64,000 bases of DNA, taken from the sequence record PZ534511.1, one strand, 5' to 3'. Below, piece by piece: positions 1 to 58,840 of the stretch. Position 1 is the first letter of the stretch. The number at the start of each line of letters is the position of its first letter. The position numbers and the translations under genes were made by a program. The notes below the pieces were generated by a model that did no database searches, had not been told where the DNA came from, and was given only the letters and a program-made list of their open reading frames with translations. This DNA comes from a phage.

Positions 1-3000
1 TTGAGAAGTTGTAAGTTCCGTTATAAGTGTGTGTCCCTGAGAATGTGACATCTGCCTTCCCGTAAGAGATGCAAACCAACGCATACTTCCTGTCAGGCAA
101 CGTTTCTCCAGTCTCTGGGTGAGTTTTACCTACCTGGAACACACTCGGGTCAGTAGAGTCGTGACTATCACTAACGGAGCTTGGACCGCCCATCAACTGT
201 GACAAACAATTCCTTACCCATGTCCAGTTATTATCGCTGGAGAAGTCCACAGTCAAATCAAACACAACCCACTCATTTGGCTTCCACACAGGTGTTGCAA
301 TGGACTTGCCTACACCGCCTCCTTGGAGTGTTGCCGACTGTTCGGTGATCAGTGCCGCATAGGCCAGAGTTCCTAAACTCAGAGTCTGGCTTGCTGTCCT
401 CACTACCTTAGAATCAGCATCTGTGAAGTTGTTGATGATTTGGAATGTGCCATAAGTGTTTTTACAGGTAATTCTGGCGTTCAGCGTGTCAATCTTCCTC
501 ACATCTGCCATAGCAGTGTTAGACACAGAGAAGTCAGAAGCTTTAGCTGAGTTTGCCGCAACAGCAGGATCAACGTTAAGAGTTGCGTTGAACTGACAGG
601 CAGGGGTAACCAGCAGCTTGTTATCACCTATTTGCTTCCATGAAATACTTTGGACAGGTAGATTCCATTTAATACCTGAGAAAACTTTAGCAACCCTTGG
701 CCCCAAAGCTCCAGTCCTGTTGTCTTTACAGCACATAGACATGGTGATCGTTGACGGAGTTGCCTGACCGAACAATTCCTGTGCTTTTGCAGAGGACATG
801 GTGTAGAAATTGTCCTTAACAAACTCATCAGCGGCTAAAGATCCATCAGCCCTCCACCACTGGACCTGATACCCTGTTTTATCCCAGCCTCCAACCTGCT
901 TCAAGTCCTCCCAAGAGATTTCCAGATCCCCCGTGGTAGGGTTGATTGCAGCAGTTCCTGGTGTACCGGATGACCACAATGGGATATCAAACCACGCAGG
1001 TTTAACAGATTGCACTGCATTAGGACCTATTGCAGCAGCAAGTTGTTGACCCATCAGCACGCGAGCATCTTTCACCAGGCCCCATTCTATCATAGACCCA
1101 GAGTAACCTTCTTTCTTGTAGGCAGAGGATCCGTTCAAATGGATGAGCCTGCTGCAGTCGAAGCCATACGCTCCACCACCGTTAGGATCTGCAAAGTTGG
1201 TTATGATTCTATCCCTAATATTTTTCCATGCCCTACCTCCAATCTCGTAGTCATGGTCATAACATCTTTGCAACGTTGTCCAGCAAATGATTGCCATTCT
1301 TCTGCCGCCTGTGAACCCGAAAGCGCCGTCATTCAGCTCTTTCCACAGGTAACAGTTGGTTGTCCACATAGCCCTGTGGATATTGAACCAGTTTATAGAT
1401 TTGGCTGAGTTGTTCCACTGAGTCCCAGGTAATTCAGGCCACACTGCATTGACTAGCATGTCCTCTGTACCGGCATCTATTAAGAAGCCTCTTACCTTCT
1501 TGCCCATACCTACCCTGTCTTTAGCAATCCAATTGCCAAACAGTCTCAGTTTTGGACCATAAACAACATCCTCTGGGTGCTCAAAAGAGACATACTTTAA
1601 GTAGATTGTTGGGTCACCGTAGGTGCCATCACAAACACTTTTGTGCATGTTTTCGCCAAGGTCTAGACGAAGCCCCGTCACTACTTTAGACGTGTCGGTG
1701 AATTTGTCTGTTAAGTCAAATTCATACCACCACCACCCACCACCTAGCATAAATTTCTTGCATCGCACAGCGTCTGTGTCAGATATTCTCTTATCCCCTG
1801 CAAAAGGTGAATCAGCAAACTGATAGTGCAGAGCAGTCTCAAATAGGTGGGTGGAAGTTCCGTTCTCTGCAAGAACTTGCTTACCTATCAGATCGCACTT
1901 AATGATCATCACAACACGCTTGTATCCGTTTGTTACCGGAACTTGCATAGATATGGATGTTCCATCCATGTTCGATCTTAGATCACTCATGATGATATAG
2001 GGGTCGACAGCGTTGCCTAAAGTTTCAGGCCCTGGAATTATCTTGTATTTCTTGACCTGGCCCATAAATCTGTCACTGGCGTAAGTTGCAGCCTCAAAAC
2101 AAGAGCCACCACCAGGTAATTCTCCAGGTCCCCAGAAAAATGCCCCATAGCAGTTATAGAACCACTTATTAGGGTCGTATTTGTTCTTGAAGGTCTGGAC
2201 CTCGTTGGCCTGTTTTGTCAAGAAAACCTGCGTGTCTGTGAAGATTGCAGGGTTTACTCTCGCCTGTCTTGGAGGGTAACCTGTAGTTTGGTTAAACCAC
2301 AAATTACAAGAGTAATCCCTCATATAGTCATAATCAGAGTATTTGTTTACATCTTCGTTCCAACACATGTTTAGGTTGGTACCGCCCATGCATACAATAT
2401 ATTCTGCGACATACTTATCACTTCTGGTAGGAATACCTATGAACCATCTGTTAACAGGCTCATCCCAAGCTGTGCGCTCATCTTTAACGCAGATAGCAAT
2501 CCAGTCATGTGTTCCTGTTTTCTTGCACACATCTCGCTTCATACCATAGTAGAACTCTTTAGTATTCGGCTCAGGTGCATTTATCAGGTAACTCCATGCC
2601 TGATTTGCATAAGTTCCATTGGTGCGTGGATCATGATCAAAGGCATACATGATGATCCTTTCCCCACCAAGATGTTCGCCAAGAGTAACTTTGACATTCA
2701 CATCGCCGTAACCATTGCGAACAACATCCATATTATCAATAGAGATACCTCTGGGCGTGTAGGCAATTTTCAGCGAGTTATCTTCACTAGTGCCGCCAAG
2801 TGTAATCCCTATGTTGTTTGTTGTCCCGTCGACATATCTTACTGTAGCTTCCCAGCGTATTCCGAAATACCCTGCATCATGGCTGACAATTTTCAGTGTA
2901 CGAGCTCCTGGGTGAGGTTTTCCAGGATCAGGCCAAGGGTCTGGGTGTTCGTGAACAGTCAACGACGTTCCGTTCTGCTCATTAACCTGCAACATTTTAC

Positions 3001-4948
3001 CACCCTTGCCATTAGGATTGAACTCCCACAAGGCTTGTGTTTTCACAATATTGTCATACGTGGCGCGTCTTTGATCGTAGATCTCTTGGGTCACATCATA
3101 AGTGACTGATCCAGCATCCATTCTGTGGAGTCTGACCATATACGATGTATCCCCTTCTACTGCAGGCTGGGTCCCATTCAGCCCAAAGTATACAGTATCA
3201 TTAACATGGAACTGTTTGTTTCTACCGACAGTATGCCATTTACCATCAGACGGGTACGCAGGAACTATGGTGTTCCAGTTCAAAGTCCTTGTCGTATGGG
3301 TTCTGCCTGTGCCATGCTTGTCATGATAGGTTATTTTTACAGAGTACAGGCCACGTCTGTTAACATTTCTGTTATACTGGGTGACAACAACTTCATTGGC
3401 CCCTCCGTGGTTCCAGTTGGTGGAGAATTGGTAATTTGCATCTGTAACAACCGTGCCTGCAGCATTTACCAGTTCAATCTTGTCAATAATGAACGTAGCC
3501 CCCTCTGGCTGAGGCTTCAATTTCATCTTGACCGTGTCACCAATGTAAATATTGCTAACGCTGCTAACACCGTTAACGTCGAAAATATCCTCAACACCCC
3601 AACTGTCTACCGGGACATTTTTATACCAATTCTCCGGAATCTCTGTGAACCCTTGGCTGTTAAGTCTGCCGCCAAAGAGGTTATTAGATCCTGTAAAACT
3701 TCCCCTTGGGATACCTGACCACCAAAGTTTACCATTAACAACAGTAAAGGTACCTAAGAAACCTTCTCTGTGGATGCCTTGGAAATAAACACTCTCTGTC
3801 CAGCTGACTGGCAGGCGTTGCTCAACATATTTAGCTGTAGCAAGAGCTTGATAGTGGATAAAATCGGCCCTAGGACTATTGTTTGCAGATTGTGCACCAA
3901 TATCATTACATAAGTTGCGAGAGAACCCACGATACTGCTTAGTGCCATTATTGAAGAAAATGCCACTTGTGCCGTACCCACGAGCCATCATTACCTCATG
4001 GGTGTAGGTGATATTCAGTTCCCGCCATGTATCATCTCCCCAAATGTTTTGACCATAAAATACGTTAACAAGCTGCTGGTCATCGGGTCTATGCATCCTC
4101 TGTGTAGCAATTACTGCCCCGTTAGGACCACACATAAACCCTTTCCACTCCTCATCTGCAGGAATGCCCCTCAAATCGTTACGAGTAATCTGCACAGGAG
4201 GCCAAACAAGGTCGTTTCTACTGTTATTTCTCAGAAAGTCGTAACCTGCAATCCAGAATCCGTTAGGACCACCAAAAATAACCGAGTTGTCATGAACTTC
4301 ACAATTAATTCTTGGATTTTTCCAAGGACCTGTCTCTGGACTTTCAGATGTTTCACCGATCTTAACTGGAGTAGCGTGTTGACTTTTGTCAACATGAAGA
4401 GAGCCGTAAGTATTATTGCCAGAGCCGTACAGGTGAAGCATACCATCAGCCTCTGGTGCAGCAATTACCCACACGGTATTGTTTACGCCACCCATTACTT
4501 CAACAAGTCTCTCAGGATGGGTGTCCAAATGCAACCCTGTTACGATCTGTTCCGGCAAAGGTGTCCACTCTCTGACACAAACATCGTTTCCACCTGCTGC
4601 CTCCGATCCGATAAGACCAGCTGTGCAACCAATATAGAAAAATTTATTATCGAATGTGCGGATTACAAATGCACGGTCAGCTCTCCAAACATGGTCTACG
4701 TTCCAAGCTGCCTCATTAGGATAGTTTATTGTATCAAGATCTCCAGTCCGACACTCTCCGAACCTATTATAGCCAGTAATATTAAGCTGACCATCATCAA
4801 AAAGTATAGCTAAGCTATTTACATAGGATACTGTGTTGCTTGTACCATCACTGTTGTCTATTGGGTATGACAGAACAGCAAGTTCCTTAATTCCACCCCT
4901 CTTATCGAGGAAATGACGACCAAGTTTTAGCAAAGGGATTGGAAGCAT
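1..4948 (-). CDS. giant tail fiber/tailspike-like structural protein, N-terminal >=1649 codons (stop lies beyond window start)
   Basis: Minus-strand frame open from ATG (plus 4946-4948, GGAG RBS at 4955-4958) to position 1; manual translation begins MLPIPLLKLGRHFLDKRGGIKELAVLSYP; absent from ORF track, which appears to list only ORFs with an in-window stop; plus-strand ORFs 1010-4813 are Cys/Ile-rich antisense shadows. Confidence 0.6.
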   Translation of the reverse strand, partial: MLPIPLLKLGRHFLDKRGGIKELAVLSYPIDNSDGTSNTVSYVNSLAILFDDGQLNITGYNRFGECRTGDLDTINYPNEAAWNVDHVWRADRAFVIRTFDNKFFYIGCTAGLIGSEAAGGNDVCVREWTPLPEQIVTGLHLDTHPERLVEVMGGVNNTVWVIAAPEADGMLHLYGSGNNTYGSLHVDKSQHATPVKIGETSESPETGPWKNPRINCEVHDNSVIFGGPNGFWIAGYDFLRNNSRNDLVWPPVQITRNDLRGIPADEEWKGFMCGPNGAVIATQRMHRPDDQQLVNVFYGQNIWGDDTWRELNITYTHEVMMARGYGTSGIFFNNGTKQYRGFSRNLCNDIGAQSANNSPRADFIHYQALATAKYVEQRLPVSWTESVYFQGIHREGFLGTFTVVNGKLWWSGIPRGSFTGSNNLFGGRLNSQGFTEIPENWYKNVPVDSWGVEDIFDVNGVSSVSNIYIGDTVKMKLKPQPEGATFIIDKIELVNAAGTVVTDANYQFSTNWNHGGANEVVVTQYNRNVNRRGLYSVKITYHDKHGTGRTHTTRTLNWNTIVPAYPSDGKWHTVGRNKQFHVNDTVYFGLNGTQPAVEGDTSYMVRLHRMDAGSVTYDVTQEIYDQRRATYDNIVKTQALWEFNPNGKGGKMLQVNEQNGTSLTVHEHPDPWPDPGKPHPGARTLKIVSHDAGYFGIRWEATVRYVDGTTNNIGITLGGTSEDNSLKIAYTPRGISIDNMDVVRNGYGDVNVKVTLGEHLGGERIIMYAFDHDPRTNGTYANQAWSYLINAPEPNTKEFYYGMKRDVCKKTGTHDWIAICVKDERTAWDEPVNRWFIGIPTRSDKYVAEYIVCMGGTNLNMCWNEDVNKYSDYDYMRDYSCNLWFNQTTGYPPRQARVNPAIFTDTQVFLTKQANEVQTFKNKYDPNKWFYNCYGAFFWGPGELPGGGSCFEAATYASDRFMGQVKKYKIIPGPETLGNAVDPYIIMSDLRSNMDGTSISMQVPVTNGYKRVVMIIKCDLIGKQVLAENGTSTHLFETALHYQFADSPFAGDKRISDTDAVRCKKFMLGGGWWWYEFDLTDKFTDTSKVVTGLRLDLGENMHKSVCDGTYGDPTIYLKYVSFEHPEDVVYGPKLRLFGNWIAKDRVGMGKKVRGFLIDAGTEDMLVNAVWPELPGTQWNNSAKSINWFNIHRAMWTTNCYLWKELNDGAFGFTGGRRMAIICWTTLQRCYDHDYEIGGRAWKNIRDRIITNFADPNGGGAYGFDCSRLIHLNGSSAYKKEGYSGSMIEWGLVKDARVLMGQQLAAAIGPNAVQSVKPAWFDIPLWSSGTPGTAAINPTTGDLEISWEDLKQVGGWDKTGYQVQWWRADGSLAADEFVKDNFYTMSSAKAQELFGQATPSTITMSMCCKDNRTGALGPRVAKVFSGIKWNLPVQSISWKQIGDNKLLVTPACQFNATLNVDPAVAANSAKASDFSVSNTAMADVRKIDTLNARITCKNTYGTFQIINNFTDADSKVVRTASQTLSLGTLAYAALITEQSATLQGGGVGKSIATPVWKPNEWVVFDLTVDFSSDNNWTWVRNCLSQLMGGPSSVSDSHDSTDPSVFQVGKTHPETGETLPDRKYALVCISYGKADVTFSGTHTYNGTYNFS

Positions 4949-4957
4949 TGTGTTCTC

Positions 4958-4998: not shown

Positions 4999-6744
4999 TT
5001 AACGTTGTGCAATTACTACGTCTACGATATCACCAACACCACAATATGTTAATTGCAGCAAGGTAACACTATTAGCCTTGTTATTAATAACAGGCGTTGC
5101 CGACAGGATAGCATACTTATCGTGCAAAGTCACGTTGTGACCTACAGCATCCTGAATGACATAGATAACCGCAGTGAATGGATAAGGTTTATCTTCCGCT
5201 GATGTACCAGGCCATTGTCCTATTGTAAAATCCCCTTTCGCGTGGACAACATACATACTGGCCTGCCCGTTAGGTGTCCATGTCCCACTGGACGCGTCAA
5301 CCTCCTCTAAATCAAAATCTACCTTTCCTGCGTGGAAAGTAGGGGCAGTAATGGTTTTACCCGCCTCAATTTCTTGAGAGGTGGTTATCTTGCCACTGGA
5401 GTTAATGCCATTACAAACAAAGTTGACATTAGAGAAGTCTGGCAGCCACCCAGTCACTGTGCCGGATATTTCAAGGTTGTGAAGGTAGGTGGTGCCCGTC
5501 CCTGCTGCGTTTAAACTAACATCTCCATTTACCTGCAAGTTTCTGGTAACGTTGCAGTTTTCAGAGTTTGCAGTTGTTGCAGTTAAAGTAGTGGTTGTCA
5601 GCTCGGTAATTACACCTTTGTTGGCTGTAAGCCCTTCCCCTTCAAAAGTTGCACGCTCATTGACTCTTAGGGTATTCAGAGCTATGTTTTGGATAGAGGC
5701 TGTACCTCGAATAACTACAGATCCGCCAACTTCTAAATCACCATTTATTAATGCGTCCCCCGTGCTTTCAATATAGCTAGGGTAAATCATGGTGCCATCG
5801 ACAGAGTAGGTTATCCCTGTAACAGTGCCTGTCACCTCAAGGTTCTTAACCCTGGTGGTTCCATCTACCTGCAATGTCGGTTCGGTTGCTGCCTTCATGG
5901 CATTACCACGAATGTACACGTAGTCAAAAAAGTTATTACCTAGACCATCAAAATGCACATCGTTATTATTAGCCACTGGTTTCCCAGAAGTTATAGTGTC
6001 AGCTATAACCCTGTGGGTGGACACTTCATGAGGTTGCAGCTCTGTGCTTCTCCAGTCTGCATGCTTAGGATCACTCCACGCAAAAGTAAGTGTAGAAGTA
6101 TTTGCCGTGAGGATTAGGTTCCTGAAGCGTGCAGTAGAATCTGCTCCATTAACAGGCCCATGTAAGGTGAGTGTGCCACCAACTATAGTGTTAGCAAGTT
6201 CTGTAAGACCTTTTACCACCAAAGATCCTACAGTAACTTTCATTCCCTCCATGGCTTCAAATATGCTATCCACATAGTCAACAACAAACTCTGTGTTTGC
6301 TATAGACTCGGATTTGTCGTCCATTGGAGGCGTAGGTACTCGCGGGTCACCTTCGAACCTCGGACTGTTAAGTTTTGCGTAGTATTTTGCCATTACTGCA
6401 GAATCGGTATATAATCTCCAGTTTGGAGATTGTGAAGGATCTGCTGGCATTCTAACCGGGTTAGATTTTGATGCTGCGGGAGCGTACCACCACTGAGGGC
6501 CTGTGTCCCCTTTAAACTCGTACAGCTGGTTAAAAACTGTTGTGGATGCACCATACGCCCAAGGGATCGGTGGCGTTTTAAAATAAAGGGTGTCAAGCAT
6601 GGCTTTTCGTACCGTAGGGATGGTGGTCCCATCCTCTACGACAACTTCATCCACAGCGTTACCGTTGACAATCAGGTGCAAACGTTCAGAATCAACAATT
6701 ACTTGATCTACCGCCTGCTCAAAGCTTGTCATGTCTTGCGCCAT
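4999..6744 (-). CDS. tail fiber/tailspike protein (581 aa)
   Basis: ORF track; Thr/Gly/Asn-rich beta-structure-like repeats (TGTVTGITYSVDG, LEISGTVTGW); position in fiber gene cluster. Confidence 0.5.
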   Translation of the reverse strand: MAQDMTSFEQAVDQVIVDSERLHLIVNGNAVDEVVVEDGTTIPTVRKAMLDTLYFKTPPIPWAYGASTTVFNQLYEFKGDTGPQWWYAPAASKSNPVRMPADPSQSPNWRLYTDSAVMAKYYAKLNSPRFEGDPRVPTPPMDDKSESIANTEFVVDYVDSIFEAMEGMKVTVGSLVVKGLTELANTIVGGTLTLHGPVNGADSTARFRNLILTANTSTLTFAWSDPKHADWRSTELQPHEVSTHRVIADTITSGKPVANNNDVHFDGLGNNFFDYVYIRGNAMKAATEPTLQVDGTTRVKNLEVTGTVTGITYSVDGTMIYPSYIESTGDALINGDLEVGGSVVIRGTASIQNIALNTLRVNERATFEGEGLTANKGVITELTTTTLTATTANSENCNVTRNLQVNGDVSLNAAGTGTTYLHNLEISGTVTGWLPDFSNVNFVCNGINSSGKITTSQEIEAGKTITAPTFHAGKVDFDLEEVDASSGTWTPNGQASMYVVHAKGDFTIGQWPGTSAEDKPYPFTAVIYVIQDAVGHNVTLHDKYAILSATPVINNKANSVTLLQLTYCGVGDIVDVVIAQR

Positions 6745-6753
6745 GATTTCTCC

Positions 6754-7020
6754 TTAAGCTTTTTGCTCTTCGTTTTTAACGTGGTCAGGGTGCTGGCAAC
6801 CCCACCGGAGCGAGATGAATTTGCTAATAAGCTGGGGGCAAGCTACTGAAGGCGCGTATATCCACGCATACCATTCAGGAAGCGTATCATTATACCCCAT
6901 ATGAATAAACACCCCAGTCATCACCGCCATGCCTATGTTCGACCATAGCTTAGATTGGGACACTTTCGTAGGGTCATCAGATGCCGCAACCAGTCCCCAT
7001 AAAAACTGAGTTAGTTTCAT
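6754..7020 (-). CDS. small membrane protein, two predicted TM segments and charged C-terminus (holin-like topology)
   Basis: 88 aa; hydrophobic stretches WSNIGMAVMTGVFIHMGY and YAWIYAPSVACPQLISKFISL, C-terminal HPDHVKNEEQKA; ATG at 7018-7020 with GAGGG RBS. Confidence 0.3.
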   Translation of the reverse strand: MKLTQFLWGLVAASDDPTKVSQSKLWSNIGMAVMTGVFIHMGYNDTLPEWYAWIYAPSVACPQLISKFISLRWGCQHPDHVKNEEQKA

Positions 7021-7031
7021 TTACCCTCTTT

Positions 7032-8078
7032 TTAAGCATAAGATATAGTGATCCATTGACCATTTACAAGTTTTTGGATAGCACCTGTCCAGTAATCACC
7101 TTGATAAGGGTGTTTATAAGCGTAGTTACCAGAGCACATCACATGTCCAGGGTAGACTCTTGACTCTCTGTAGGTGGTTTTAAAACGGTTTGCTATCCTT
7201 ACATCATCAACCCCTCTGCTAGGCATAGGGATAGTAAGGTTACCGCTACTGTCTGCGCCGTTACCATTTACCCTGCGGACCACGTTTCTTCCACCAACTG
7301 TTGCATATTGGCCCCTGACGGTTTCATCGTTACAATCAACTCTTCCACCTATTTGAGCGCTTCCGCAGGATTGTTGTCCATTAACAGTGGCTCTTGGTAT
7401 CGTGACCGCATTGGCATTTGCAGAGGAACTTTTTGCATCGTTGCATTCAAGATTTCCTTGGATAGCCAGTCTTGCACGGTTGGCAGTTATAGCATTGAGC
7501 TTCATAGCTGAAAACACAGGCTGCCCACCAGAAGGTTGAAATCTCCAACGGAACCCATCTATTTGGTGAGAAGGATCATCAAGGTCTGTGCCGTCAGCAC
7601 CACCGATGTTGTCCATAATCCAGAAATCCATCGTCGTCTTGTCTGGAGTTATGGTGGTATATATTGCCGCACTGTCTGTTGACGCAGATGCAAACTCGAT
7701 TCTTTGAAGACCTAAAGTTTGAGTCTGAGTCATTATGTCTCCAGACTTGTCAACATATAGATCGTCCATTTCTTCAGGTGAGTATACATTGAGAACTTGA
7801 CGTGCAGCAGCTTTGTCTGGAACGTCTGCTAGATTATTAGTGACCCTTAAGAATCTATTATCCCATCCTGGGACAACATCTTCTGTTAAATGCTTCAACC
7901 ACGCAGAAAGCATGTGAAGTTCAAAGTTAACAACTTCACATGCCATTCTTTGTGTCATATCCCAACCTTTCAATCTCTCTTCTTTTTTTGGTTGAGATTT
8001 ATTCAACTCTCCCGTATTTTCAAGCACAACATCCTGATTGGCCCAAATATCAAGAGGGATAACTGGTTTAGTCATCAC
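7032..8078 (-). CDS. tail fiber/receptor-binding protein, paralog A (348 aa)
   Basis: N-terminus (MMTKPVIPLDIWANQDVVLENTGELNKSQP) and C-terminus (QKLVNGQWITISYA) clearly paralogous to 9090..10130. Confidence 0.45.
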   Translation of the reverse strand: MMTKPVIPLDIWANQDVVLENTGELNKSQPKKEERLKGWDMTQRMACEVVNFELHMLSAWLKHLTEDVVPGWDNRFLRVTNNLADVPDKAAARQVLNVYSPEEMDDLYVDKSGDIMTQTQTLGLQRIEFASASTDSAAIYTTITPDKTTMDFWIMDNIGGADGTDLDDPSHQIDGFRWRFQPSGGQPVFSAMKLNAITANRARLAIQGNLECNDAKSSSANANAVTIPRATVNGQQSCGSAQIGGRVDCNDETVRGQYATVGGRNVVRRVNGNGADSSGNLTIPMPSRGVDDVRIANRFKTTYRESRVYPGHVMCSGNYAYKHPYQGDYWTGAIQKLVNGQWITISYA

Positions 8079-8164
8079 GTTCTCCTGAGAAAATTCCTTA
8101 GGACTATTTTAACACTTTAGAGAACAAAATGCAAGAACGGAGTCCTTTCCGTTCTGACCTTTGT

Positions 8165-8479
8165 TTACCTTTTACTATGCTCTACGAGCATGTGCAAAAT
8201 CTTTTGTACATCAGCTCGGATGCCGGAGACATCTGTCCTGACATCCTGCTTAAGGTCGTTAATATCGGCCTCTAGCTTGCTTAACCGAGTCTCGATAACG
8301 GAATCAAGTCTATCTTTTGTAACCATACTGTTTTTCACTAAGATGAGGTCTTTCTCCAGCTCATCCAACCTCTTGGAAATGCCTTTCCATTTGGTGTGCC
8401 ACTGGTTGAAAGCCCATACACAGATCGGGACAACGGTACCCATGCAGATACCGTACAATGCCGCCAAATCCAACTCCAC
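8165..8479 (-). CDS. membrane-anchored coiled-coil protein (104 aa)
   Basis: N-terminal hydrophobic segment GICMGTVVPICVWAF followed by heptad-like charged region. Confidence 0.3.
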   Translation of the reverse strand: MELDLAALYGICMGTVVPICVWAFNQWHTKWKGISKRLDELEKDLILVKNSMVTKDRLDSVIETRLSKLEADINDLKQDVRTDVSGIRADVQKILHMLVEHSKR

Positions 8480-8490
8480 AACACCTCCTC

Positions 8491-9075
8491 TTAGAGGGTA
8501 GGTCGCTCCGGGAAGAAAATGTCAGGGGCTTTAGATGTATCTATTTCAAGAAGTTTTACCCTGTACATTTTCAAATCTCTGATGTTACGTTTCTGGTCAT
8601 CAGTAAGATCATATTCAAGGTCAATCATGTCTTGATAGGCACCAATTCTAGCAGTAGCCCAAGCAAGTTCTGTCTCTATGACACCCTCTGCCTGTTGAAC
8701 AAAGAATTCATTGTCTGTGACAAATTCATCACCAACTAAACGCAAAGCGTCGTGGTGAAGCATAATGTTTTCTGGTACCTCTTCTTTTTTGGCGATAACC
8801 ACACGAAGACCTGGAGCAGGCCATAAGGCATCAGGTTCTTCTGTAGATGTCTTAAGAATTCCCTTCTCGTCAACAAGTAGGAAGATACACCCTGGATTTT
8901 CTTGTCGTAATGTTCGTGACTGCACATACCAATCACCATCATCATTACGTAAAAAATACCCAGTGTATGCGGTGTAATCCTCGACCTCTTGAGGGGTCAG
9001 CTCCTTGGTTTCCTTGTTGGAGTAGTATTCGCCAGATCCCGGTTGGTAAAGTTTAAACTCTTGAAGTATTTTCAT
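8491..9075 (-). CDS. tail fiber assembly chaperone (Tfa-like)
   Basis: 194 aa directly downstream of a fiber gene; C-terminal region ELAWATARIGAYQDMIDLEYDLTDDQKRNIRDLKMYRVKLLEIDTSKAPDIFFPERP resembles lambda Tfa/Mu U family endings (from memory). Confidence 0.5.
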   Translation of the reverse strand: MKILQEFKLYQPGSGEYYSNKETKELTPQEVEDYTAYTGYFLRNDDGDWYVQSRTLRQENPGCIFLLVDEKGILKTSTEEPDALWPAPGLRVVIAKKEEVPENIMLHHDALRLVGDEFVTDNEFFVQQAEGVIETELAWATARIGAYQDMIDLEYDLTDDQKRNIRDLKMYRVKLLEIDTSKAPDIFFPERPTL

Positions 9076-9089
9076 GCTAGTCCTCCGAT

Positions 9090-10130
9090 CTATGCATAAT
9101 TAACAGTGATCCATTGACCATTTACAAGTTTTTGTAAAGGTCCTGCCCAGTAGGTTGAACCACGCATCTCTTTTTTGTCACCGAAATGCCAGCCTGTGAC
9201 AACGTAGCCGTTGCGGATTGGAGATTCAGAAACGCCGTCCACAAGTCTTGCACCGATTCTGATGTCTTGCACACCTGTCTGCGGGATAGTGATCGTTACA
9301 TCACCGTTACCGTTAGCCGTCACTCCATTCACGGAGCGCACCACATTTCTGTTACCGACAACACAGTGCTGGCTTCTTACAACCATACTGTCACAACTTG
9401 CACCACCATTAACATATACTGACCCAGCCGTCAACTGACTAGCCACATTACAGTTGGTGAATGTTGCTGTATTGCTGATAGTAAGGTTATTGCACCTCAT
9501 GTTATCGACAACTTCAACATTGCCTACCACTTTCAACAGCGCACGATTAGCCGTGATCGCGTTAAGGTACATCAAAGTGAACTCTGGATTAATATCCGGC
9601 TGAGTTGGCTGGAATCTCCAACGAAACGCATCTACTGTAGATGTACCACCATCATCAAACGACCCGGTATTATCACTTAACCCAAAGTCGAGAGTTGTCT
9701 TATCTGGGCCAATAGTTGTCTCTATCCAAGCCTTATCTGTCTCGGCAGCTTTAAAGTTGATACGTTGCAACCCCAAGGGGCCTGTCATTGTATCACCTGT
9801 AACTTTTACATACCTGGCGTCTGCCTCTTCCTTAGTGATAATCCCAAGGTTTCTACGGGCAACAGGGATGTTCAAAAGATCGCTCAAGTTATTATCACGT
9901 ACCAGATAACGGCCTTCTTGAGCGGGGATCTGCTCGTCAGCAATGTATTTTGCCCAAGTTCCGAGCATATTGAAAATATAGTTAAGTTCTTCACAGGATG
10001 GCTTTTGACCAAGATCCCAACCTTTTCTCCACAAATCATCAATCGGGCGTAGCCTGTTCTGTCTGTGGGTGTTAGGCAGAACCTGATCCTCCTCTGCCCA
10101 AATCTCTAATGGAAAACTAGGTTTTGACAT
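9090..10130 (-). CDS. tail fiber/receptor-binding protein, paralog B (346 aa)
   Basis: Shares N- and C-terminal segments with 7032..8078 (MSKPSFPLEIWAEEDQVLPNT ... QKLVNGQWITVNYA); divergent central region. Confidence 0.45.
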   Translation of the reverse strand: MSKPSFPLEIWAEEDQVLPNTHRQNRLRPIDDLWRKGWDLGQKPSCEELNYIFNMLGTWAKYIADEQIPAQEGRYLVRDNNLSDLLNIPVARRNLGIITKEEADARYVKVTGDTMTGPLGLQRINFKAAETDKAWIETTIGPDKTTLDFGLSDNTGSFDDGGTSTVDAFRWRFQPTQPDINPEFTLMYLNAITANRALLKVVGNVEVVDNMRCNNLTISNTATFTNCNVASQLTAGSVYVNGGASCDSMVVRSQHCVVGNRNVVRSVNGVTANGNGDVTITIPQTGVQDIRIGARLVDGVSESPIRNGYVVTGWHFGDKKEMRGSTYWAGPLQKLVNGQWITVNYA

Positions 10131-10142: not shown

Positions 10143-12215
10143 TTATGAGAAGTCTGGAGGGACAACATCTTCTACATACCCTTTCAGAGCAACCTGCCCC
10201 ATATGAAGCACGGTAGAATCTCTGGCTGTAACAGTGATGCTGTCAGACATTACTTGCGGGTATGCCCACACATACTGTTTTACCTCAGGGTATCTATACT
10301 CTATGGTTGCCATGTTTCCGCAGATACATCTCCATAAAAATTCTTGGTAATTCCTGGTTGGGTCGTAGCCATATACCGGAGCAAGCTCTTTACTAGGAAC
10401 GAACCCTGCAAGGTATTGTATTTCAGACGGTTGCCAACCTAACTTAACGATAGGTATGTTTACAGACTCTTTTGCCTTTTCAATACCTCCCTGCATCACC
10501 CAATCGTAGCACTCGGTGCAGAAGAAATCAAGAGCACCTGCTTCTTTTTTATATTGGTCAGCAAGGTTCAGCTTTTGCGTAAGCTCTGTTTCCATAATGG
10601 TTGGGAAAAACAGCAGAGCTGTCATCTGAGCTGATGCAGCGTGTGCCTTTATTGCCTTTGAAATGGCCGCAATACGAGCGCCAAGCTTACCACGACAAAA
10701 TGCTACATACTTGTCGTAAACACCGCCAGTTTTAGGATCGTCAATAGTCCCAATATCTAATGCATACTCACCTGTCTCATCATAAAACGCCTGCTTTGTA
10801 GGGTAATCATAAATACAAGGTCTACGAGTATCGGTATTGTACCACCACCACGGTTCACCAACCTGCATAATCACTGGCAGGTTGTTTCTCATAGCGGCTG
10901 ATGCAAAATTCTTAAATACTGCAGTAAGGAAATTCATACCCTCTTCAATGGTTGGAGACAGGAGGTAGCTACAGGGTGTATACCCTGTTTTAGCGTAGTT
11001 ATCGTTCCAGTCTCTTTGGGTCCATTCCAACGGGCAGGCATCGCTGAAAAGCTCAAAACTTACAGATTGCATAACGTCGAAGTTATGTCGTTTGGCATTG
11101 TACATAAAATCATCATGCCATTTATAAGCTGCAGCGTTTAGCGCCCCTGTTCTGTTTATAGACCATTGGGTTCCTGACCATGTGTAGTCATAATAATGAC
11201 TCATACCAACATAATGGTTTATGGTTCCGGTATAGCCCAGACGCTTGATATTGTTCAACACCCTTAAAGGAGATACGTTCCACATATCGTCATATGCGGT
11301 GCAGATCCCAACGTCGTGCTCTTTAACCTGAATATTGTTAAGTTGCATCATTTTCCAGCCTGTGTCTGGCTGGAGCAGATCTAGGCGCAACTCACACTCT
11401 ACATTTTCCGTTCTCGGGTCTGTGCTATTACTTACCCAGTCTTTAGGCATAAGCGGTATTAAAATCCTTCTCACCTGTCGAGGATCAACACCCATCATGT
11501 TGTTGTTCTGATCCATCCCGACGCAGTCCTCGAAATCAATATGAATCTCTGCAACATTCTTATCCTCTGAGATGCTGACAGCATATTGAGCTAAAGGAAC
11601 ATAGATGATTGTGCCATCAACAAGGTCTACAGTCATAATCATCTTTTCAGGGGTGGAGAAGTTGCTGGCATTGGTTATTGACATTCTGAACCAAAGCTTG
11701 GTGTTTCTCATCTCATAGTGATCATCAAACCCAATACCGAAATGGTCATACTTGTCAACTGTTTCCCAAATGCACCCAGCCATACCTCCATATGTTCTTG
11801 ACACTAAACGGTTAATACAACAGTTGTTATCTGCAACAATACAGGTACTTTCAGTCTGCTGAGTAGTTGTAACCCAATACCTTGGGTGAAACATTCTCTC
11901 CTCAACAGTATCCCAAGATATCCTGTCAAGATTCTCATCTGAAACTATTGTACATTTCGCCCTTTGTGTTCCAATCATCACCCCTTGAGATTTTGATGAA
12001 AACTCCATAAAGAAGCTTCTTGGCAACCTGTTGGGTAATTTGTCAACAATTTCCACTGGGATCTCAATACTGGTTGCCCCAATTGGGATAGTTACATCAC
12101 CCTCAACATGATTATAATCCCTACCAGGAACGGCAGTATCCTGAACTGTGCGGTAATGAAACCGTGCAGCCATTGTAGAGTAATCACGGTAAGGTTTAAA
12201 AATAGCTGTTGCCAT
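10143..12215 (-). CDS. tail/baseplate structural protein (690 aa)
   Basis: ORF track; position between baseplate and fiber genes; Trp/Tyr-rich, no enzymatic motif recognised. Confidence 0.35.
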   Translation of the reverse strand: MATAIFKPYRDYSTMAARFHYRTVQDTAVPGRDYNHVEGDVTIPIGATSIEIPVEIVDKLPNRLPRSFFMEFSSKSQGVMIGTQRAKCTIVSDENLDRISWDTVEERMFHPRYWVTTTQQTESTCIVADNNCCINRLVSRTYGGMAGCIWETVDKYDHFGIGFDDHYEMRNTKLWFRMSITNASNFSTPEKMIMTVDLVDGTIIYVPLAQYAVSISEDKNVAEIHIDFEDCVGMDQNNNMMGVDPRQVRRILIPLMPKDWVSNSTDPRTENVECELRLDLLQPDTGWKMMQLNNIQVKEHDVGICTAYDDMWNVSPLRVLNNIKRLGYTGTINHYVGMSHYYDYTWSGTQWSINRTGALNAAAYKWHDDFMYNAKRHNFDVMQSVSFELFSDACPLEWTQRDWNDNYAKTGYTPCSYLLSPTIEEGMNFLTAVFKNFASAAMRNNLPVIMQVGEPWWWYNTDTRRPCIYDYPTKQAFYDETGEYALDIGTIDDPKTGGVYDKYVAFCRGKLGARIAAISKAIKAHAASAQMTALLFFPTIMETELTQKLNLADQYKKEAGALDFFCTECYDWVMQGGIEKAKESVNIPIVKLGWQPSEIQYLAGFVPSKELAPVYGYDPTRNYQEFLWRCICGNMATIEYRYPEVKQYVWAYPQVMSDSITVTARDSTVLHMGQVALKGYVEDVVPPDFS

Positions 12216-12901
12216 TAACCCTCCTGTCTAGTTGCGTTTACTGTAATACTTTCACAATAAATGGTTGTGGTGTCCCAATCAGGTCTTACGTCAGGAACAT
12301 ACAGCAAAGTAGCCAGCCCACCAACTCCGAATTGGTTTTCTTCCCACACTGATCCGAAGCCAAGAGCTGTAGAGTCCCCTTCAAAACCAAAAGCTTGCCC
12401 TTGCGATTCTGTAAGACGCAAATGACAAGGTAATGGTAGCATATCTAAGATCTGATCGATAGACTGCAATATGTCAAAGCAAGTTTTTCTAATATTTATG
12501 TCAAACCTGAAGTTGTCTCCTTTCCACGTATCGAAATTGTCTCTTCCGAACAATTGTCGCAAGGTGGAGATGACATCTTCGCGAGTCCCGCCCCTTGATG
12601 CTGCGGCCTGCTGAATAATTAGTGTGGCACGAAAATCAGCATCTGAAAGTCCATTCCTAAGAATACCAAGTTGATTACCAACTTCGTCAAGGTATCTTCC
12701 GCTGGCATTGTTAAGCAATCTTCCTTCAGCCAAACCTACCAGCATCTTATCAACATCCTCCAACCTTTTAAGGTATACGGTTAAGAATGTGACTAAATTA
12801 ACCTTCTCAGCCAGAAAATCTCCAGGCAGGTAGTCAAGACCTCCCTGAACAAAATCTGGCAGAGTGTGGATGTGGTTAACATCCGACTTAATCTCTGCCA
12901 T
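12215..12901 (-). CDS. tail/baseplate protein (228 aa)
   Basis: ORF track; stop/start overlap with flanking structural genes. Confidence 0.35.
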   Translation of the reverse strand: MAEIKSDVNHIHTLPDFVQGGLDYLPGDFLAEKVNLVTFLTVYLKRLEDVDKMLVGLAEGRLLNNASGRYLDEVGNQLGILRNGLSDADFRATLIIQQAAASRGGTREDVISTLRQLFGRDNFDTWKGDNFRFDINIRKTCFDILQSIDQILDMLPLPCHLRLTESQGQAFGFEGDSTALGFGSVWEENQFGVGGLATLLYVPDVRPDWDTTTIYCESITVNATRQEG

Positions 12902-12912: not shown

Positions 12913-14403
12913 TTAAATAGTTTGTTGGAAAGTTATATTACTTTCGTCGAGGTCAAACACCTCGGTCATGTTCGCAACAATATCGTTTGTAGTGTAAGCT
13001 TCATCAGAAGCTCCTACGGATTTAACTTGAATTACCAGCCTATTAAATCTGCCTATTGACACAGCAGCAGATGCAGCACCTACCAATTGGATATTATACA
13101 ACGTATCTGCAACATCCAGTCCGTTAACAACCTGCAAAAGAGCCTCTATAATGGCATCTTTTTCGGTTGTAGAAAGCGCAGCACCGGAGTAGGTAATTCT
13201 TACATCTAGGCGGTAGGTGTTTGCCTTGGAGTAATAAATTCTTTCAGTTTGACCGTCAGATGTAGTGACATCGTAGAAAATATTACCATAAGTCCTGTTC
13301 GTACAGGCTATAGTTTGGTAAAGTGCTTGGCAAATGTCTTCCGTTGCACCACCAAACACAACCACTTGGAACTTGTAAGGGGGTATACCTTTAGCATCAG
13401 TTTTATCGGTGTTATTGGAGAACACTCTCACTTTCTCAACACCTTTCACCTCGCTTACAGCGCTAAGGATTGCAGGACGGGTAGCCTTAGATGTTAACTG
13501 TTTTGTGCTGGAAGCTCTTAAGCGATACTCTGAGTCTTTCTCAACATCCCTGCCCTCATTGAATCTTTCTCGGTTGGTAAGCTTGATAAATCCACTGGGA
13601 GTAGGTGACATTGTTGTCACGGTTTCTGCCTCTCTTGACAACTCACCCGCCTCGTTAGCGATAACATCCAGTGTGATAGTTCTTTCCCCTACAATCGGGG
13701 ATACTCTGAAATCTACTCTACTATTAAGTCCAACTTGATCAAGATTCGAATTGTACCCTATCCACAACGTTCCTGTCAACATATCTATCTGAATCAAATC
13801 GTCGTTCAACAGGGTTGTATTATCGACAATGAACTGCTTAATCTCTCCGTAAAAGCTTGGCAGATCAGAAGAGTCCAGAGACTTATCTGTTAAAACCAGA
13901 CTTTTTGTTTTGATACTTCCATCTGTCTGGTTGGTAATTTGAAAGTTGTATTTACCAATCCTTAGGTCTGGGGCATTTATTCTGTGAGCAATAAGATTCC
14001 CTGCTACTTGCACATCGTTGCTAAGAACAAAGTTGCCACTGTCCAGCGTATAAGTTTTGGAATCATAAATCATATTGTACGGCACAGTTGTGTTGATTGT
14101 CAACTGGCAGGTACCTGATGATTTAGAACGGCCTCTTCGGTAAATACCTTGTCTTCCAAGAAGCTCATCTAGGTAAATACCTTCTGCCCCATACAGCGTC
14201 TGTGATGCGTATACAGATGCTGCCATAAGAATAAGTTGATACTCTCGCTCGTTGAAGATAGTGGTCAGCTTATCTGCAACGGAGTTACTCTGTACGTTGA
14301 AGTTTTCGCCAAAAGCACGGATCAGGCTTTGCTTAGTTTCAACGATTAGGTCATTTAGGGTTGGTATAACGAAACCAGCCTCTGTCAATCCATACTTAGC
14401 CAC
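12913..14403 (-). CDS. baseplate/tail structural protein (496 aa)
   Basis: ORF track; size and position compatible with baseplate wedge (J-like) protein; inference only. Confidence 0.35.
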   Translation of the reverse strand: MAKYGLTEAGFVIPTLNDLIVETKQSLIRAFGENFNVQSNSVADKLTTIFNEREYQLILMAASVYASQTLYGAEGIYLDELLGRQGIYRRGRSKSSGTCQLTINTTVPYNMIYDSKTYTLDSGNFVLSNDVQVAGNLIAHRINAPDLRIGKYNFQITNQTDGSIKTKSLVLTDKSLDSSDLPSFYGEIKQFIVDNTTLLNDDLIQIDMLTGTLWIGYNSNLDQVGLNSRVDFRVSPIVGERTITLDVIANEAGELSREAETVTTMSPTPSGFIKLTNRERFNEGRDVEKDSEYRLRASSTKQLTSKATRPAILSAVSEVKGVEKVRVFSNNTDKTDAKGIPPYKFQVVVFGGATEDICQALYQTIACTNRTYGNIFYDVTTSDGQTERIYYSKANTYRLDVRITYSGAALSTTEKDAIIEALLQVVNGLDVADTLYNIQLVGAASAAVSIGRFNRLVIQVKSVGASDEAYTTNDIVANMTEVFDLDESNITFQQTI

Positions 14404-14470
14404 GTCACTCCTCCGGTATGAAAATCTCTACAAGGTATTTTACCAAATTTTGTAACAATAGTCAATCTGA

Positions 14471-14500
14471 GCATAAAAATAAACCCCGCCGAAGCGGGGC
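14471..14500 (-). terminator. rho-independent terminator after J-like gene
   Basis: ccccgc-cgaa-gcgggg hairpin (14484-14499) followed on minus RNA by UUUAUUUUUAU. Confidence 0.6.
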
Positions 14501-14508
14501 TTTAAAGG

Positions 14509-46808: not shown

Positions 46809-47234
46809 ACCCTCATCGAAGCAAACCATGGTATACTCAAGCCCTTGATGGTTAAGCTTATCTTGTACATACTCCATGTGGCAGTATTTTACAACAGCTC
46901 CCTTTTTGCTTCTATCCCACTTGCCGGTGTTCGGATCAAACCGTGGAAAAATGAACTTATGATCCTTCTCTCTGAACTTTGGCTTAATGTTTTCAGGCAG
47001 ATCACTATAAATAGCTACTGCTTTAGGCCATAGTCCACCCTCACCTTCCAACTGTGGGGTTGTTCTTCGGAACATAACCACAGAGCTGTGGGGGTCATCA
47101 ATAATTTTAAGTGGCATCAATTGCAAGAGGAACGACTTGCCAGACCCTGCGGCACCGCCGATTACCAAAATATCTGCATCGTTTTCAAGGATCATCTTCT
47201 GCTTTTCAGAACACGGTCCGTAAATCTTAGACAT
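46809..47234 (-). CDS. terL: terminase large subunit, exon 1 (ATPase Walker A/B)
   Basis: Walker A GGAAGSGKS, Walker B MVCFDEG at exon end; in-frame TAA follows immediately (intron start); ATG overlaps spanin stop (TAATG). Confidence 0.7.
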
Positions 47235-47521
47235 TAACCTCTCTCCTTTGGAAACAGTGTTCTAATATAGTCTTGCAAAATGATCAATTTAGCTCTATCA
47301 TTGCTACAAGACAGATTATTATCCCTCATAATGCCAGAATTCACTGCATCTGGCGCACCTTTCTTCAAAGGCATAGCTTTAGCAGGTGGTTTCATGGCAC
47401 CTTCCGGGGGTTTAACAATCAACCTTCCTACATCAGGAGGGTCAATCTTGTATTCTCTCTCAACGCTGGTTGCACACCCACATAATAACAAGCACACAAT
47501 AAACAGTGCAGCAACTCTCAT
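47234..47521 (-). CDS. o-spanin (Rz1-like outer-membrane lipoprotein)
   Basis: 95 aa; signal peptide ending in lipobox-like LLCGC, Pro-rich mature region; overlaps i-spanin by 4 nt. Confidence 0.55.
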   Translation of the reverse strand: MRVAALFIVCLLLCGCATSVEREYKIDPPDVGRLIVKPPEGAMKPPAKAMPLKKGAPDAVNSGIMRDNNLSCSNDRAKLIILQDYIRTLFPKERG

Positions 47522-47916
47522 CGACCCTCCTGATTAATACTCTCATTATAAATATCTATAAGCTGATCAGGGAGTGTTGACTTCTTACCCTCAGGTGATT
47601 GGAGGTAAATAATCTGCTTTTCTTTACCTGCCCTCTCAGCTATATTTAATTTATCCTGCAGATCAGAAAGAGATTTTTCAAGGTTTTTAACCTCCTCTGC
47701 GTGGCCCATTTTAATCTTGTCGGCCTGCTTTTGTTGCTGATCAAGGATCCGTTCCCACTTTAACTCTGTTGCTGACACACCCTCCTGGTAGGCATCATTA
47801 AGCTTGGAGTTAAACCAATACACGGCCCCAAGATAAGCTGTACCTATCGCAGCTGCAAAAACTAAACCTTTTATGATCCCTTTATACCTACTCAGCCATG
47901 TTAAAACTGAAATCAT
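47518..47916 (-). CDS. i-spanin (Rz-like)
   Basis: 132 aa; N-terminal TM (GLVFAAAIGTAYLGAVYW) followed by coiled-coil periplasmic domain. Confidence 0.55.
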   Translation of the reverse strand: MISVLTWLSRYKGIIKGLVFAAAIGTAYLGAVYWFNSKLNDAYQEGVSATELKWERILDQQQKQADKIKMGHAEEVKNLEKSLSDLQDKLNIAERAGKEKQIIYLQSPEGKKSTLPDQLIDIYNESINQEGR

Positions 47917-58099: not shown

Positions 58100-58570
58100 A
58101 TGAAACTTGATAAAAATGTTCAACGAAAAGCTTTCTTGGATATGATCGCATATTCAGAAGGCACAGATAATGGTAGACAACCCACCAAGGATCGGGGCTA
58201 TGATGTCATAGTTGGTGGCAAGCTGTTTAGCGATTACAGCAAGCATCCAGGTGTGTACGTTAAGCTAAATGCTAAACTTACCTCCTCCGCTGCTGGGCGT
58301 TACCAGGTTTTGGAGAAGTTTGCTAAACACTACATGGAACAGTTAGGATTGCCAGATTTTGGCCCTGCCAGTCAGGACAAGATTGCGTTGCAACTGATCC
58401 GTGAGTGCAAGGCTCTCGCCGACATTGACGAAGGGCGTATCCACGAGGCTATCCATAAATGTCGTTCCCGCTGGGCTTCGTTACCTGGTGCTGGATATGG
58501 TCAGCATGAACAGAAGATTGAGAAGTTGATCGAGGTGTTTAAAAAGGCAGGCGGTGTTGTCCTTGATTGA
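58100..58570 (+). CDS. endolysin, lambda R-like lytic transglycosylase
   Basis: Near-identity of blocks to lambda R from memory: QRKAFLDMIAYSEGTDNGRQ, GYDVIVGG, AAGRYQ, WASLPGAGYGQ. Confidence 0.85.
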   Translation: MKLDKNVQRKAFLDMIAYSEGTDNGRQPTKDRGYDVIVGGKLFSDYSKHPGVYVKLNAKLTSSAAGRYQVLEKFAKHYMEQLGLPDFGPASQDKIALQLIRECKALADIDEGRIHEAIHKCRSRWASLPGAGYGQHEQKIEKLIEVFKKAGGVVLD

Positions 58571-58633: not shown

Positions 58634-58840
58634 ATGAAAGATTTTCTGTTGGCAATTTTGTTCATGGCAGCATGTCTGGCCTGTGGTGTCGTGTTTGCAG
58701 GTGAAACAGCGTATCTTGTCGATGTATATCGGGACAATGGTAAACGTATTTGCCTTTATGAGACAAGCCAAGGTGAGCTCTACGAGCTTGTGAAACAAGG
58801 CGAGGCTGGATCTTGTCCTCGCACCCATTTCTTTGAATGA
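58634..58840 (+). CDS. small membrane/secreted protein (possible lipoprotein or holin-like lysis accessory)
   Basis: 68 aa; N-terminal hydrophobic segment LLAILFMAACLACGVVFA; AGGAGGG RBS; directly after endolysin. Confidence 0.35.
   Translation: MKDFLLAILFMAACLACGVVFAGETAYLVDVYRDNGKRICLYETSQGELYELVKQGEAGSCPRTHFFE

Follow-up and report, generated by a model that had tools for sequence, protein, structure and literature searches.

The 64,000-nucleotide (nt) stretch of phage DNA analysed here (sequence record PZ534511.1, hereafter the window) carries a cluster of tail-fibre genes among which two small open reading frames (ORFs), orf88 and orf104, are interspersed. On the comparative sequence evidence presented below, orf88 is a lysis protein and most likely a holin, with a probability of about 0.55–0.6, since homologues of this protein lie directly behind endolysins of three enzyme classes in prophages. 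The fullest explanation of the cluster, to which slightly better than even odds can be given, combines a short tail fibre (STF) module with orf88 as its putative holin and, far more tentatively, orf104 as a modulator of lysis. The cluster comprises the following features, in the direction of transcription:

9090..10130, minus strand: STF1 (short tail fibre 1), 346 amino acids (aa); phrog_4465, 'short tail fiber protein' in GenBank
8491..9075, minus strand: Tfa, Mu gpU-like tail fibre assembly chaperone, 194 aa; Caudo_TAP, phrog_136
8165..8479, minus strand: orf104, 104 aa, predicted N-terminal transmembrane (TM) helix and long helical domain of coiled-coil type; phrog_5345 (unknown function), 'hypothetical protein' in GenBank
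8134..8155, minus strand: terminator-like hairpin within the 86 nt that separate orf104 from STF2, an 8-pair stem followed by TGCATTTTGT, recognised at consensus level only
7032..8075, minus strand: STF2 (short tail fibre 2), 347 aa from the ATG at 8075; phrog_4465
6754..7020, minus strand: orf88, 88 aa, predicted helical-hairpin membrane protein; phrog_1322, hypothetical or 'membrane' protein in GenBank

Order and names, here and in the later list of flanking genes, follow the GenBank annotation of the related phages DrSchubert and slur16, to whose counterparts the proteins are 99–100% identical. The minus strand carries every gene of the fibre region, and all the ORFs that an earlier note on this DNA had reported are present at the positions it gave; the ORF at 7032..8078 corresponds to 348 aa, and the ATG at 8075 is a better start. 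On sequence, the phage is an rV5-like myophage of the genus Vequintavirus: positions 4900-12300 share 99.7% identity with Escherichia phage A6-1 and 99.5% with DrSchubert (Bas50), and a single match spanning at least 80% of this region is present in 111 phage records, nearly all of them Vequintavirus. The rV5-like and phi92-like phages are among the most often isolated coliphages and are candidates for therapy, and their holin has not been identified. Were orf88 to be this holin, the set of lysis genes would be complete for a large group of phages, and a function would be at hand for phrog_1322, a widespread unannotated family in prophages of Neisseria, Moraxella, Kingella, nitrifying bacteria and others.

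The orf88 family and its endolysin neighbourhood

orf88 is a member of phrog_1322 ('membrane protein', 2.7e-32), which PHROGs files under the category 'moron, auxiliary metabolic gene and host takeover'. A search of 1.84 billion representative proteins with a profile built from 65 members of the family retrieved 119 clusters at E <= 1e-3. All the relatives scanned (108/108) belong to phrog_1322 and a few (5/108) match DUF2644 (PF10841), with a best E value of 6.3e-5; orf88 itself shows no match to DUF2644 even at E <= 10. Neither DUF2644 nor phrog_1322 carries a function: the public names of the prophage homologues, in NCBIfam and among cluster names, are only 'hypothetical protein' or DUF2644, and a full-text literature search for DUF2644 returned no paper. 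A PDB sequence search with orf88 and orf104 yielded nothing meaningful, and Foldseek comparison of the orf88 model with BFVD recovered family members only.

The relatives of orf88 are characterized by a length of 75–90 residues, a predicted helical hairpin and a basic N-terminal motif, S-H-T-K-x-W-x-N. In the family this motif stands before helix 1 as S-H-T-K-x-W-[SA]-N, helix 2 ends in SKF[LI]S[LM][RK][YF]G and a charged tail follows. With its 88 aa, orf88 likewise has a charged C-terminal tail, and its AlphaFold2 (AF2) model consists of a short N-terminal helix, a 23-residue helix of TM length (residues 22-44) and a kinked 24-residue helix (residues 49-72). These two helices make the two-TM protein described by the earlier note plausible; with a maximum KD19 of 1.05 and a pLDDT of 64, the description is not certain. 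Topology prediction, which the same note had proposed, gives a moderately hydrophobic N-in/C-in hairpin. A strong Shine-Dalgarno (SD) sequence precedes both orf88 (AAGAGGG) and orf104 (GAGGAGG), and these sites, together with conservation across many phage genera, indicate that the two are real genes and not chance ORFs.

The connection with lysis emerges from prophages. A prophage subfamily of 16 orf88 relatives served to scan bacterial genomes, one for each species, and disclosed 57 loci, distributed among Neisseria, Moraxella, Kingella, Eikenella, Nitrosospira, Jeongeupia, Burkholderiaceae and others. The Vequintavirinae orf88 family and this prophage subfamily align over 80 columns in hhalign with 99.4% probability and an E value of 2.3e-21. 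When the loci were screened with a small panel of five endolysins, a panel enzyme was found in 28/57, and in every case (28/28) it is encoded directly upstream of the orf88 homologue, on the same strand and 3–494 nt away. The gene directly upstream in three unrelated loci encodes, according to Pfam, GH108 plus PG_binding_3 (locus L064), Phage_lysozyme (L048) and a VanY/M15 peptidase (L052). The order of genes in L064, named by PHROGs, is endolysin, orf88 homologue, Rz-like spanin, DksA-like protein, a protein with a transmembrane domain (TMD) and coiled coil (phrog_462), and the terminase region; by this gene order, the orf88 homologue occupies the holin position of a lysis cassette. An Rz-like spanin behind the orf88 homologue was recorded in this one scanned locus.

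A proposed dispersed lysis system

The other lysis genes recognised in the window are:

58100..58570, plus strand: endolysin, 156 aa, from the translation; its position corresponds to bas54_0202 of phage Bas54
47518..47916, minus strand: i-spanin, N-terminal TMD with basic residues before it; adjoins the terminase gene
47234..47521, minus strand: o-spanin, lipoprotein-type signal with LLLCGC; adjoins the terminase gene

In our reading of its sequence the endolysin is lambda R-like, and it is presumed to be the partner that needs a holin; its translation starts with a hydrophilic N-terminus and contains neither a signal-anchor-release (SAR) nor a signal sequence. Directly after it, at 58634..58840 on the plus strand, lies a 68-aa ORF with a signal-peptide/lipoprotein-like N-terminus (MKDFLLAILFMAACLACG...); bas54_0201, at the corresponding position in Bas54, tolerates insertions. 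The authors of the LL12 study reported that a holin was not identifiable in their phage.

Transposon-insertion sequencing of Bas54 (MaxBurger), a close relative, provides a measure of how far each gene of the cluster tolerates disruption, given as TA sites hit per gene:

bas54_0035, STF1: 3/61 TA sites, essential
bas54_0036, Tfa: 2/35 TA sites, essential
bas54_0037, orf104: 1/20 TA sites, essential
bas54_0038, STF2: 1/57 TA sites, essential
bas54_0039, orf88: 0/19 TA sites, essential
bas54_0040, lateral fibre: 1/123 TA sites, essential
bas54_0031 and bas54_0041, flanking fibres: 180/221 and 281/336 TA sites, non-essential

Zero insertions were also found in the Bas54 genes annotated as 'endolysin' (bas54_0202), i-spanin and o-spanin, and the holin gene t of T4 and of Bas37 shows 0 insertions. 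The gene annotated 'putative holin' in Bas54, bas54_0115, was hit at 27/28 TA sites and is dispensable; its product (L030, a Bas54 stretch, 24921-25292) has two very hydrophobic helices. Among the essential Bas54 genes checked (0001-0040, 0087, 0101 and 0110), a clear hydrophobic helix occurs only in the spanins, orf104 and bas54_0110, with orf88 as a borderline case. The authors of the insertion data point out that their transposon is devoid of a terminator and that insertions are as a rule tolerated when they lie upstream of essential genes, and argue against widespread polarity. Mass spectrometry (MS) of CB7 (Certrevirus) and W70 (Septuagintavirus) virions detected the flanking wedge, STF and lateral tail fibre (LTF) proteins; the chaperone and the small proteins between the fibre genes were not detected in either virion and the small proteins are therefore probably non-structural, bearing in mind that small hydrophobic proteins are easily missed by MS.

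The proposed mechanism runs as follows. orf88 would be a holin, or at least an essential inner-membrane lysis protein, rather than a fibre accessory. Expressed late, as part of the fibre operon, it would build up in the inner membrane until a set moment and then give the cytoplasmic endolysin access to the wall; disruption of the outer membrane by the spanins would come next. In these phages the genes for lysis would be scattered, as they are in T4, where the order 37-38-t places the holin gene t directly after the tail-fibre gene 38. The T7 holin gene 17.5 likewise stands behind fibre gene 17, and other membrane-protein genes found in or beside fibre or receptor-binding genes include T5 llp, phi80/T1 cor and lambda lom. 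These arrangements contradict the view, expressed in the earlier note, that membrane proteins inside a fibre cluster are unusual. Of the holin and antiholin roles suggested there for the two ORFs, the former suits orf88, with homologues after endolysins in 28/57 loci and an orthologue lacking insertions, while the role of orf104 is uncertain.

Like T4 t and T7 17.5, orf88 would encode a small putative inner-membrane lysis protein at the end of a late fibre/chaperone block, far from the endolysin. The proteins themselves differ: T4 T combines a single TMD with a large domain in the periplasm, whereas orf88 is a predicted two-helix hairpin and the bulk of orf104 is predicted to be cytoplasmic, and a Pfam match to holins is lacking. 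With class II holins and pinholins (phage 21 S68, T7 gp17.5) orf88 shares a size of 65–95 residues, two helices and a predicted N-in/C-in topology; as in class II holins, its first helix is weakly hydrophobic and rich in G/A/S/T/M and its C-terminal tail is charged. However, orf88 is not homologous to these proteins and hole formation is only putative. A pinholin mechanism alone would not suffice, because the endolysin of this phage has no SAR domain.

A number of observations weigh against orf88 as the holin and against the wider lysis module. The gene lies 51 kb from the endolysin, and its product is only moderately hydrophobic (maximum KD19 1.05, against a family median of 1.3–1.6). Neither orf88 nor its phiTE- and phi92-type homologues match any family, or any curated holin, in Pfam and NCBIfam at E <= 10. 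More than half of the prophage loci (29/57) gave no match to the five-endolysin panel, and adjacency to an endolysin would equally fit an antiholin or another lysis accessory protein. In Bas54 the operon bas54_0032-0040 consists entirely of genes called essential, and an insertion-tolerant gene that could serve as an internal control for polarity is missing. The same phage offers a rival holin candidate in bas54_0110 (L030 22644-22997), a 117-aa protein with a single, N-terminal TMD that is called essential with 9/31 TA sites hit. As to orf104, homology to the Mu protein gp25 or to the phrog_462 proteins of prophages was not detected, and the AF2 models of both small proteins are of low confidence (pLDDT 63-64). 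Finally, a search of the literature brought to light no experiment on either the orf88 or the orf104 protein.

orf104 and the alternative explanations

The characterization of orf104 as a TM/coiled-coil protein in the earlier note agrees with the predictions. Residues 3-24 form a strong N-terminal hydrophobic segment (KD19 1.91), followed in the AF2 model by predicted long helices, two in number (pLDDT 63). The 109 proteins of the family come exclusively from phages of the rV5-like, phi92-like, PVP-SE1-like and CR3-like groups or from contigs of such phages. Hydrophobicity reaches KD >= 1.6 in 42/55 members, and the same 55 sequences have an acidic N-terminus with, on average, 0 K/R preceding the helix and 2.7 K/R following it. 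The lack of K/R before the helix and the basic cluster behind it predict, by the positive-inside rule, an N-out/C-in orientation with the coiled coil tethered in the cytoplasm. orf104 would accordingly be modelled as a membrane-tethered cytoplasmic coiled coil of uncertain role. Searches of Pfam and NCBIfam with orf104 at E <= 10 returned only sub-threshold coiled-coil noise; in the Pfam scan of the small ORFs XhlA (PF10779) scored 16.2 bits against a threshold of 34.7 and aligned over 20 residues only, and the orf104 model had no Foldseek match in BFVD.

The protein that orf104 most resembles in outline is the releasin gp25 of Mu, which combines an N-terminal TMD in N-out/C-in orientation with a coiled-coil domain in the cytoplasm (Chamblee et al. 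2022, PMC9239132). orf104 shares with gp25 its length (∼100 aa), the N-terminal TMD, the predicted orientation and the cytoplasmic coiled coil. The same study sets a gene position within approximately five genes downstream of the endolysin and a SAR endolysin partner as criteria for releasins (PMC9239132); orf104, in contrast, lies more than five genes from the endolysin, which is not of the SAR type. Homology between orf104 and gp25 was considered and rejected: hhalign gives 7%, and DUF2730 is not among the families retrieved for the 55 members at E <= 1, whereas in control comparisons gp25 itself matches DUF2730 (PF10805) at 2.5e-13 and the Aeromonas homologue of orf104 scores 95.7% in hhalign. 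Kinship with the TMD/coiled-coil proteins of prophages was rejected as well (hhalign 12% and 2%).

Mu-like prophages with an orf88 homologue contain such a phrog_462 protein in the same cassette. At L064 7026-7346 and L048 6842-7201 it takes the position of the gp25 releasin, and its PHROG differs from those of gp25 (phrog_736) and orf104 (phrog_5345). A part of orf104 in lysis can be entertained, at appreciably less than even odds; the guess is that it modulates lysis in an antiholin-like or releasin-like fashion, a role in fibre assembly being nearly as likely. As orf104 always follows Tfa, it could be a fibre assembly factor held at the membrane.

The arrangement of the genes in relatives bears directly on these possibilities. 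Comparison of the window proteins with 29 loci, drawn from phages in GenBank and from IMG/VR contigs, distinguishes five arrangements. In Vequintavirus proper the order is STF1 - Tfa - orf104 - STF2 - orf88 - lateral fibre. A clade of four contigs (L009-L012, 65-80% protein identity) displays the same order with a different second fibre. In L025 a single STF is followed by Tfa, orf104, orf88, directly adjacent to orf104, and the lateral fibre. Certrevirus, Seunavirus, Henunavirus and an Aeromonas phage exhibit the order STF - chaperone - orf104 homologue - 4-TM protein - orf88 homologue - fibre. In Phapecoctavirus and phi92-like phages orf88 is located just upstream of the wedge gene and a TMD/coiled-coil protein is encoded after Tfa; phi92 gp149 belongs to the orf104 family. 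Throughout the loci compared, orf104 directly follows the Tfa gene, and orf88 is retained whether the downstream gene encodes an LTF or a wedge protein. The small proteins stay 46-80% identical while fibres and receptors change, as between the flagellotropic phiTE and the lipopolysaccharide- or glycan-binding rV5-like phages.

STF2 is absent from L025 and from the Certrevirus, Seunavirus and phi92-like loci, and by this comparison of gene order it is an insertion between two ancestrally neighbouring small ORFs. The pattern of one membrane ORF per fibre, on which the earlier note had remarked, is therefore an accident of gene order: where relatives have a single fibre, the small ORFs are neighbours or are split only by the 4-TM gene. 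The 4-TM protein (L003 6519-6977, L013-L024 ∼5512-5985, L033 4496-4936) measures 146-157 aa and has three to four strong hydrophobic helices. It is absent from the window and from L025; a homologue of the 4-TM protein phiTE_239 was found neither in the window nor in the Bas54 stretches 62-92 kb (L030) and 1-42 kb (L031), and the Aeromonas phage protein at this position has no detectable similarity to the enterobacterial version. A broader proposal, which is distinctly speculative, holds that phrog_1322 (remotely DUF2644) is a hitherto unrecognised and widespread holin family in phages and prophages of Proteobacteria and that orf88, orf104 and, in some genera, the 4-TM partner constitute a lysis-timing cassette in the STF operon of rV5-like, phi92-like and PVP-SE1-like phages, which would couple lysis to the production of the last virion parts.

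The alternative that survives best, although unlikely, regards both small ORFs as non-virion, membrane-associated assembly factors of the baseplate periphery or of the fibres; orf104, for example, could be a second, gp57A-like coiled-coil STF chaperone at the inner membrane, essential since the fibres otherwise fail to assemble. Both ORFs are strictly kept in the baseplate/fibre operon of phages as far apart as those of enterobacteria, Aeromonas and Pseudomonas. The place of orf104 is always directly after Tfa and that of orf88 always directly before a large structural gene, with translation signals that overlap or closely abut. Their calls as essential in Bas54 and their absence from virion proteomes, which they share with Tfa, point in the same direction. 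Against this stand the orf88 homologues in prophage lysis cassettes, beside endolysins and spanins and far from fibre genes, and the fact that orf88 is present before either an LTF or a wedge gene and remains 46-80% conserved while the fibres are exchanged. Moreover, we know of no precedent for a membrane-anchored fibre chaperone.

A further and less probable explanation is that the essentiality calls are polar artefacts, the small ORFs being dispensable membrane accessories and the true holin residing elsewhere, for instance in bas54_0110, essential and furnished with an N-terminal TMD. The calls may indeed be polar, since every gene in the operon bas54_0032-0040 scored essential, and translation signals within it overlap or are closely spaced; the dispensable bas54_0031 is separated from this operon by terminator-like and promoter-like sites. 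The design of the transposon and the tolerance of upstream insertions reported by the authors speak against polarity, the depth at which both families are conserved points to an important function, and the endolysin adjacency of the orf88 homologues is independent of the insertion data.

The earlier note had also considered superinfection exclusion. Small membrane proteins or lipoproteins such as T5 Llp, phi80/T1 Cor and T4 Imm are known, some of them encoded beside receptor-binding genes. An exclusion or receptor-masking function after the manner of Llp or Cor would accord with the location of the two ORFs next to receptor-binding genes, with their predicted membrane association and with the category in which PHROGs places phrog_1322. 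The genes for Llp, Cor and Imm are, however, dispensable and receptor-specific, and T4 imm is freely disrupted, whereas the Bas54 orthologues of orf88 and orf104 tolerate essentially no insertions. The sequences of the small ORFs do not co-vary with fibre alleles or receptors, the bulk of orf104 is predicted to be cytoplasmic and the prophage homologues of orf88 belong to lysis cassettes. Exclusion is disfavoured on account of the essentiality calls and the lack of co-variation, and must be considered very improbable. Least credible of all is an i-spanin-like orf104 with an N-terminal anchor and a periplasmic coiled coil: the outline, a TMD followed by a coiled coil of ∼80 residues, is superficially Rz-like, but the family-wide charge predicts the opposite topology, a complete i-/o-spanin pair, essential in Bas54, is encoded at 47234..47916, and orf104 has neither an embedded nor an adjacent lipoprotein partner.

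The short tail fibres and the surroundings of the cluster

The fibre pair and its chaperone are already published knowledge and the present analysis adds nothing new in this respect, since the BASEL paper (Maffei et al. 2021, PMC8594841) describes two paralogous short tail fibres and a chaperone in Vequintavirinae sensu stricto. According to the same work, these genes are homologous to the single-STF locus of phi92-like phages and ultimately to Mu gpS/gpU (PMC8594841). The window contains the same genes as the STF locus of rV5 and the BASEL phages, two paralogous STFs and one Tfa, and the fibres do not differ. The two small ORFs are not discussed in the BASEL paper (PMC8594841) and are annotated as 'hypothetical protein'.

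STF1 and STF2 are 43% identical by BLASTP over their full length (E 2e-94) and both cover the whole profile of phrog_4465, 'tail fiber protein', at 1.8e-171 and 2.1e-166, respectively; they are paralogous fibres with different distal tips, as the earlier note had recognised. Its more specific statement that the two share N- and C-terminal segments and differ centrally holds only approximately: identity is spread over the whole length, with peaks in alignment columns 121-150 (65%) and in the last 30 columns (57%) and minima in columns 211-270 and at the distal tip, columns 331-360 (19%), the last ∼20 residues being conserved. At the DNA level the recognisable repeats between the two genes are limited to the 3'-terminal 62 nt (84%) and one 28-nt stretch. 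The further idea that the fibres are alternative receptor-binding modules is not upheld, as the STFs are not redundant alternatives in K-12 and both are called essential in Bas54, with the caveat of polarity.

The solved phiTE short tail fibre, 9cuy, matches STF1 residues 1-108 (E 1.4e-19) and, more weakly, STF2 residues 2-84 (E 1.1e-9); in the paper on 9cuy, residues 3-92 of the STF are modelled bound to the baseplate wedge. Mu gpS (5yvq) matches the C-terminus of STF1, residues 286-343, at E 1.7e-6. STF2 has no match to 5yvq at E <= 1, but its last ∼20 residues (QKLVNGQWIT) are common to both STFs. The phi92 homologue gp147 has been fitted into the fibre III density on the wedge protein, and STF homologues have been seen by MS in CB7 and W70 virions. 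By homology, both STFs would be short fibres of the Mu gpS type, trimeric in the virion by analogy, which would dock to the baseplate wedge via the conserved N-terminal domain. The single Tfa presumably folds both. Its earlier designation as a Tfa-like chaperone is confirmed by Pfam Caudo_TAP (PF02413), with 45.6 bits against a cut-off of 22.1 and an E value of 1e-11, and by phrog_136 at 1e-36.

The single STF of L025 shows 34-36% identity to STF1, which is the orthologue of the single STF in related genera. STF2 would have arisen by duplication within its lineage; its distal tip differs, and it would be an insertion between two small genes which adjoin each other in relatives. In L009-L012 (IMG/VR 3300045988 contigs, ∼2840-5970) the first STF is 73-74% identical to STF1, and the STF in the second slot can be regarded as a third allele, since it is only ∼44% identical to either window STF. 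The C-terminal ∼60 residues of the two paralogues in this clade are nearly identical, and their Tfa is only 45% identical to that of the window; together, these sequences suggest that the tips underwent gene conversion and co-evolved with the chaperone.

The genes flanking the cluster, again in the direction of transcription, are:

12913..14403, minus strand: baseplate J-like protein (GenBank annotation of relatives)
12215..12901, minus strand: baseplate protein, 228 aa (GenBank annotation of relatives)
10143..12215, minus strand: lateral fibre with Calx-beta and N4 gp65-type (non-contractile tail sheath) TIM-barrel domains (Pfam)
4999..6744, minus strand: lateral fibre with glycosidase domain (phrog_4549 at 1.5e-250; GenBank annotation)
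running off the window start, minus strand: very large lateral fibre with intimin/Ig-like domains, gene of ∼5.5 kb (annotation of relatives)

The product of 10143..12215 matches Pfam TIM-barrel_NCTSP at 4.1e-80 and NCTSP_N at 7.2e-13. The BASEL paper (PMC8594841) links this type of fibre to the enterobacterial common antigen, and a preprint of 2026 names the N4 glycan receptor (NGR) for the homologous protein of the phi92 gp142 type. The SD sequence of the lateral fibre gene at 4999..6744 overlaps the stop codon of orf88. No ORF is listed on the minus strand in 1..4950, as the intimin/Ig fibre gene extends past the window start; its Bas54 orthologue, bas54_0041, is dispensable on K-12 and depleted on a clinical isolate. 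Between the FN3 fibre and baseplate J genes, at 14437..14502 on the minus strand, a strong terminator-like hairpin (9 pairs and a T run) is followed by a promoter-like site, TTGACT-17-TAAAAT with TG, so that the genes from 14403 to the window start may form a separate transcription unit. Over the 7.4-kb region, 16 'Campylobacter phage' records (MG0656xx, host C. jejuni) are ∼99% identical to E. coli rV5-like phages and are probably mislabelled or derived from contaminating coliphages.

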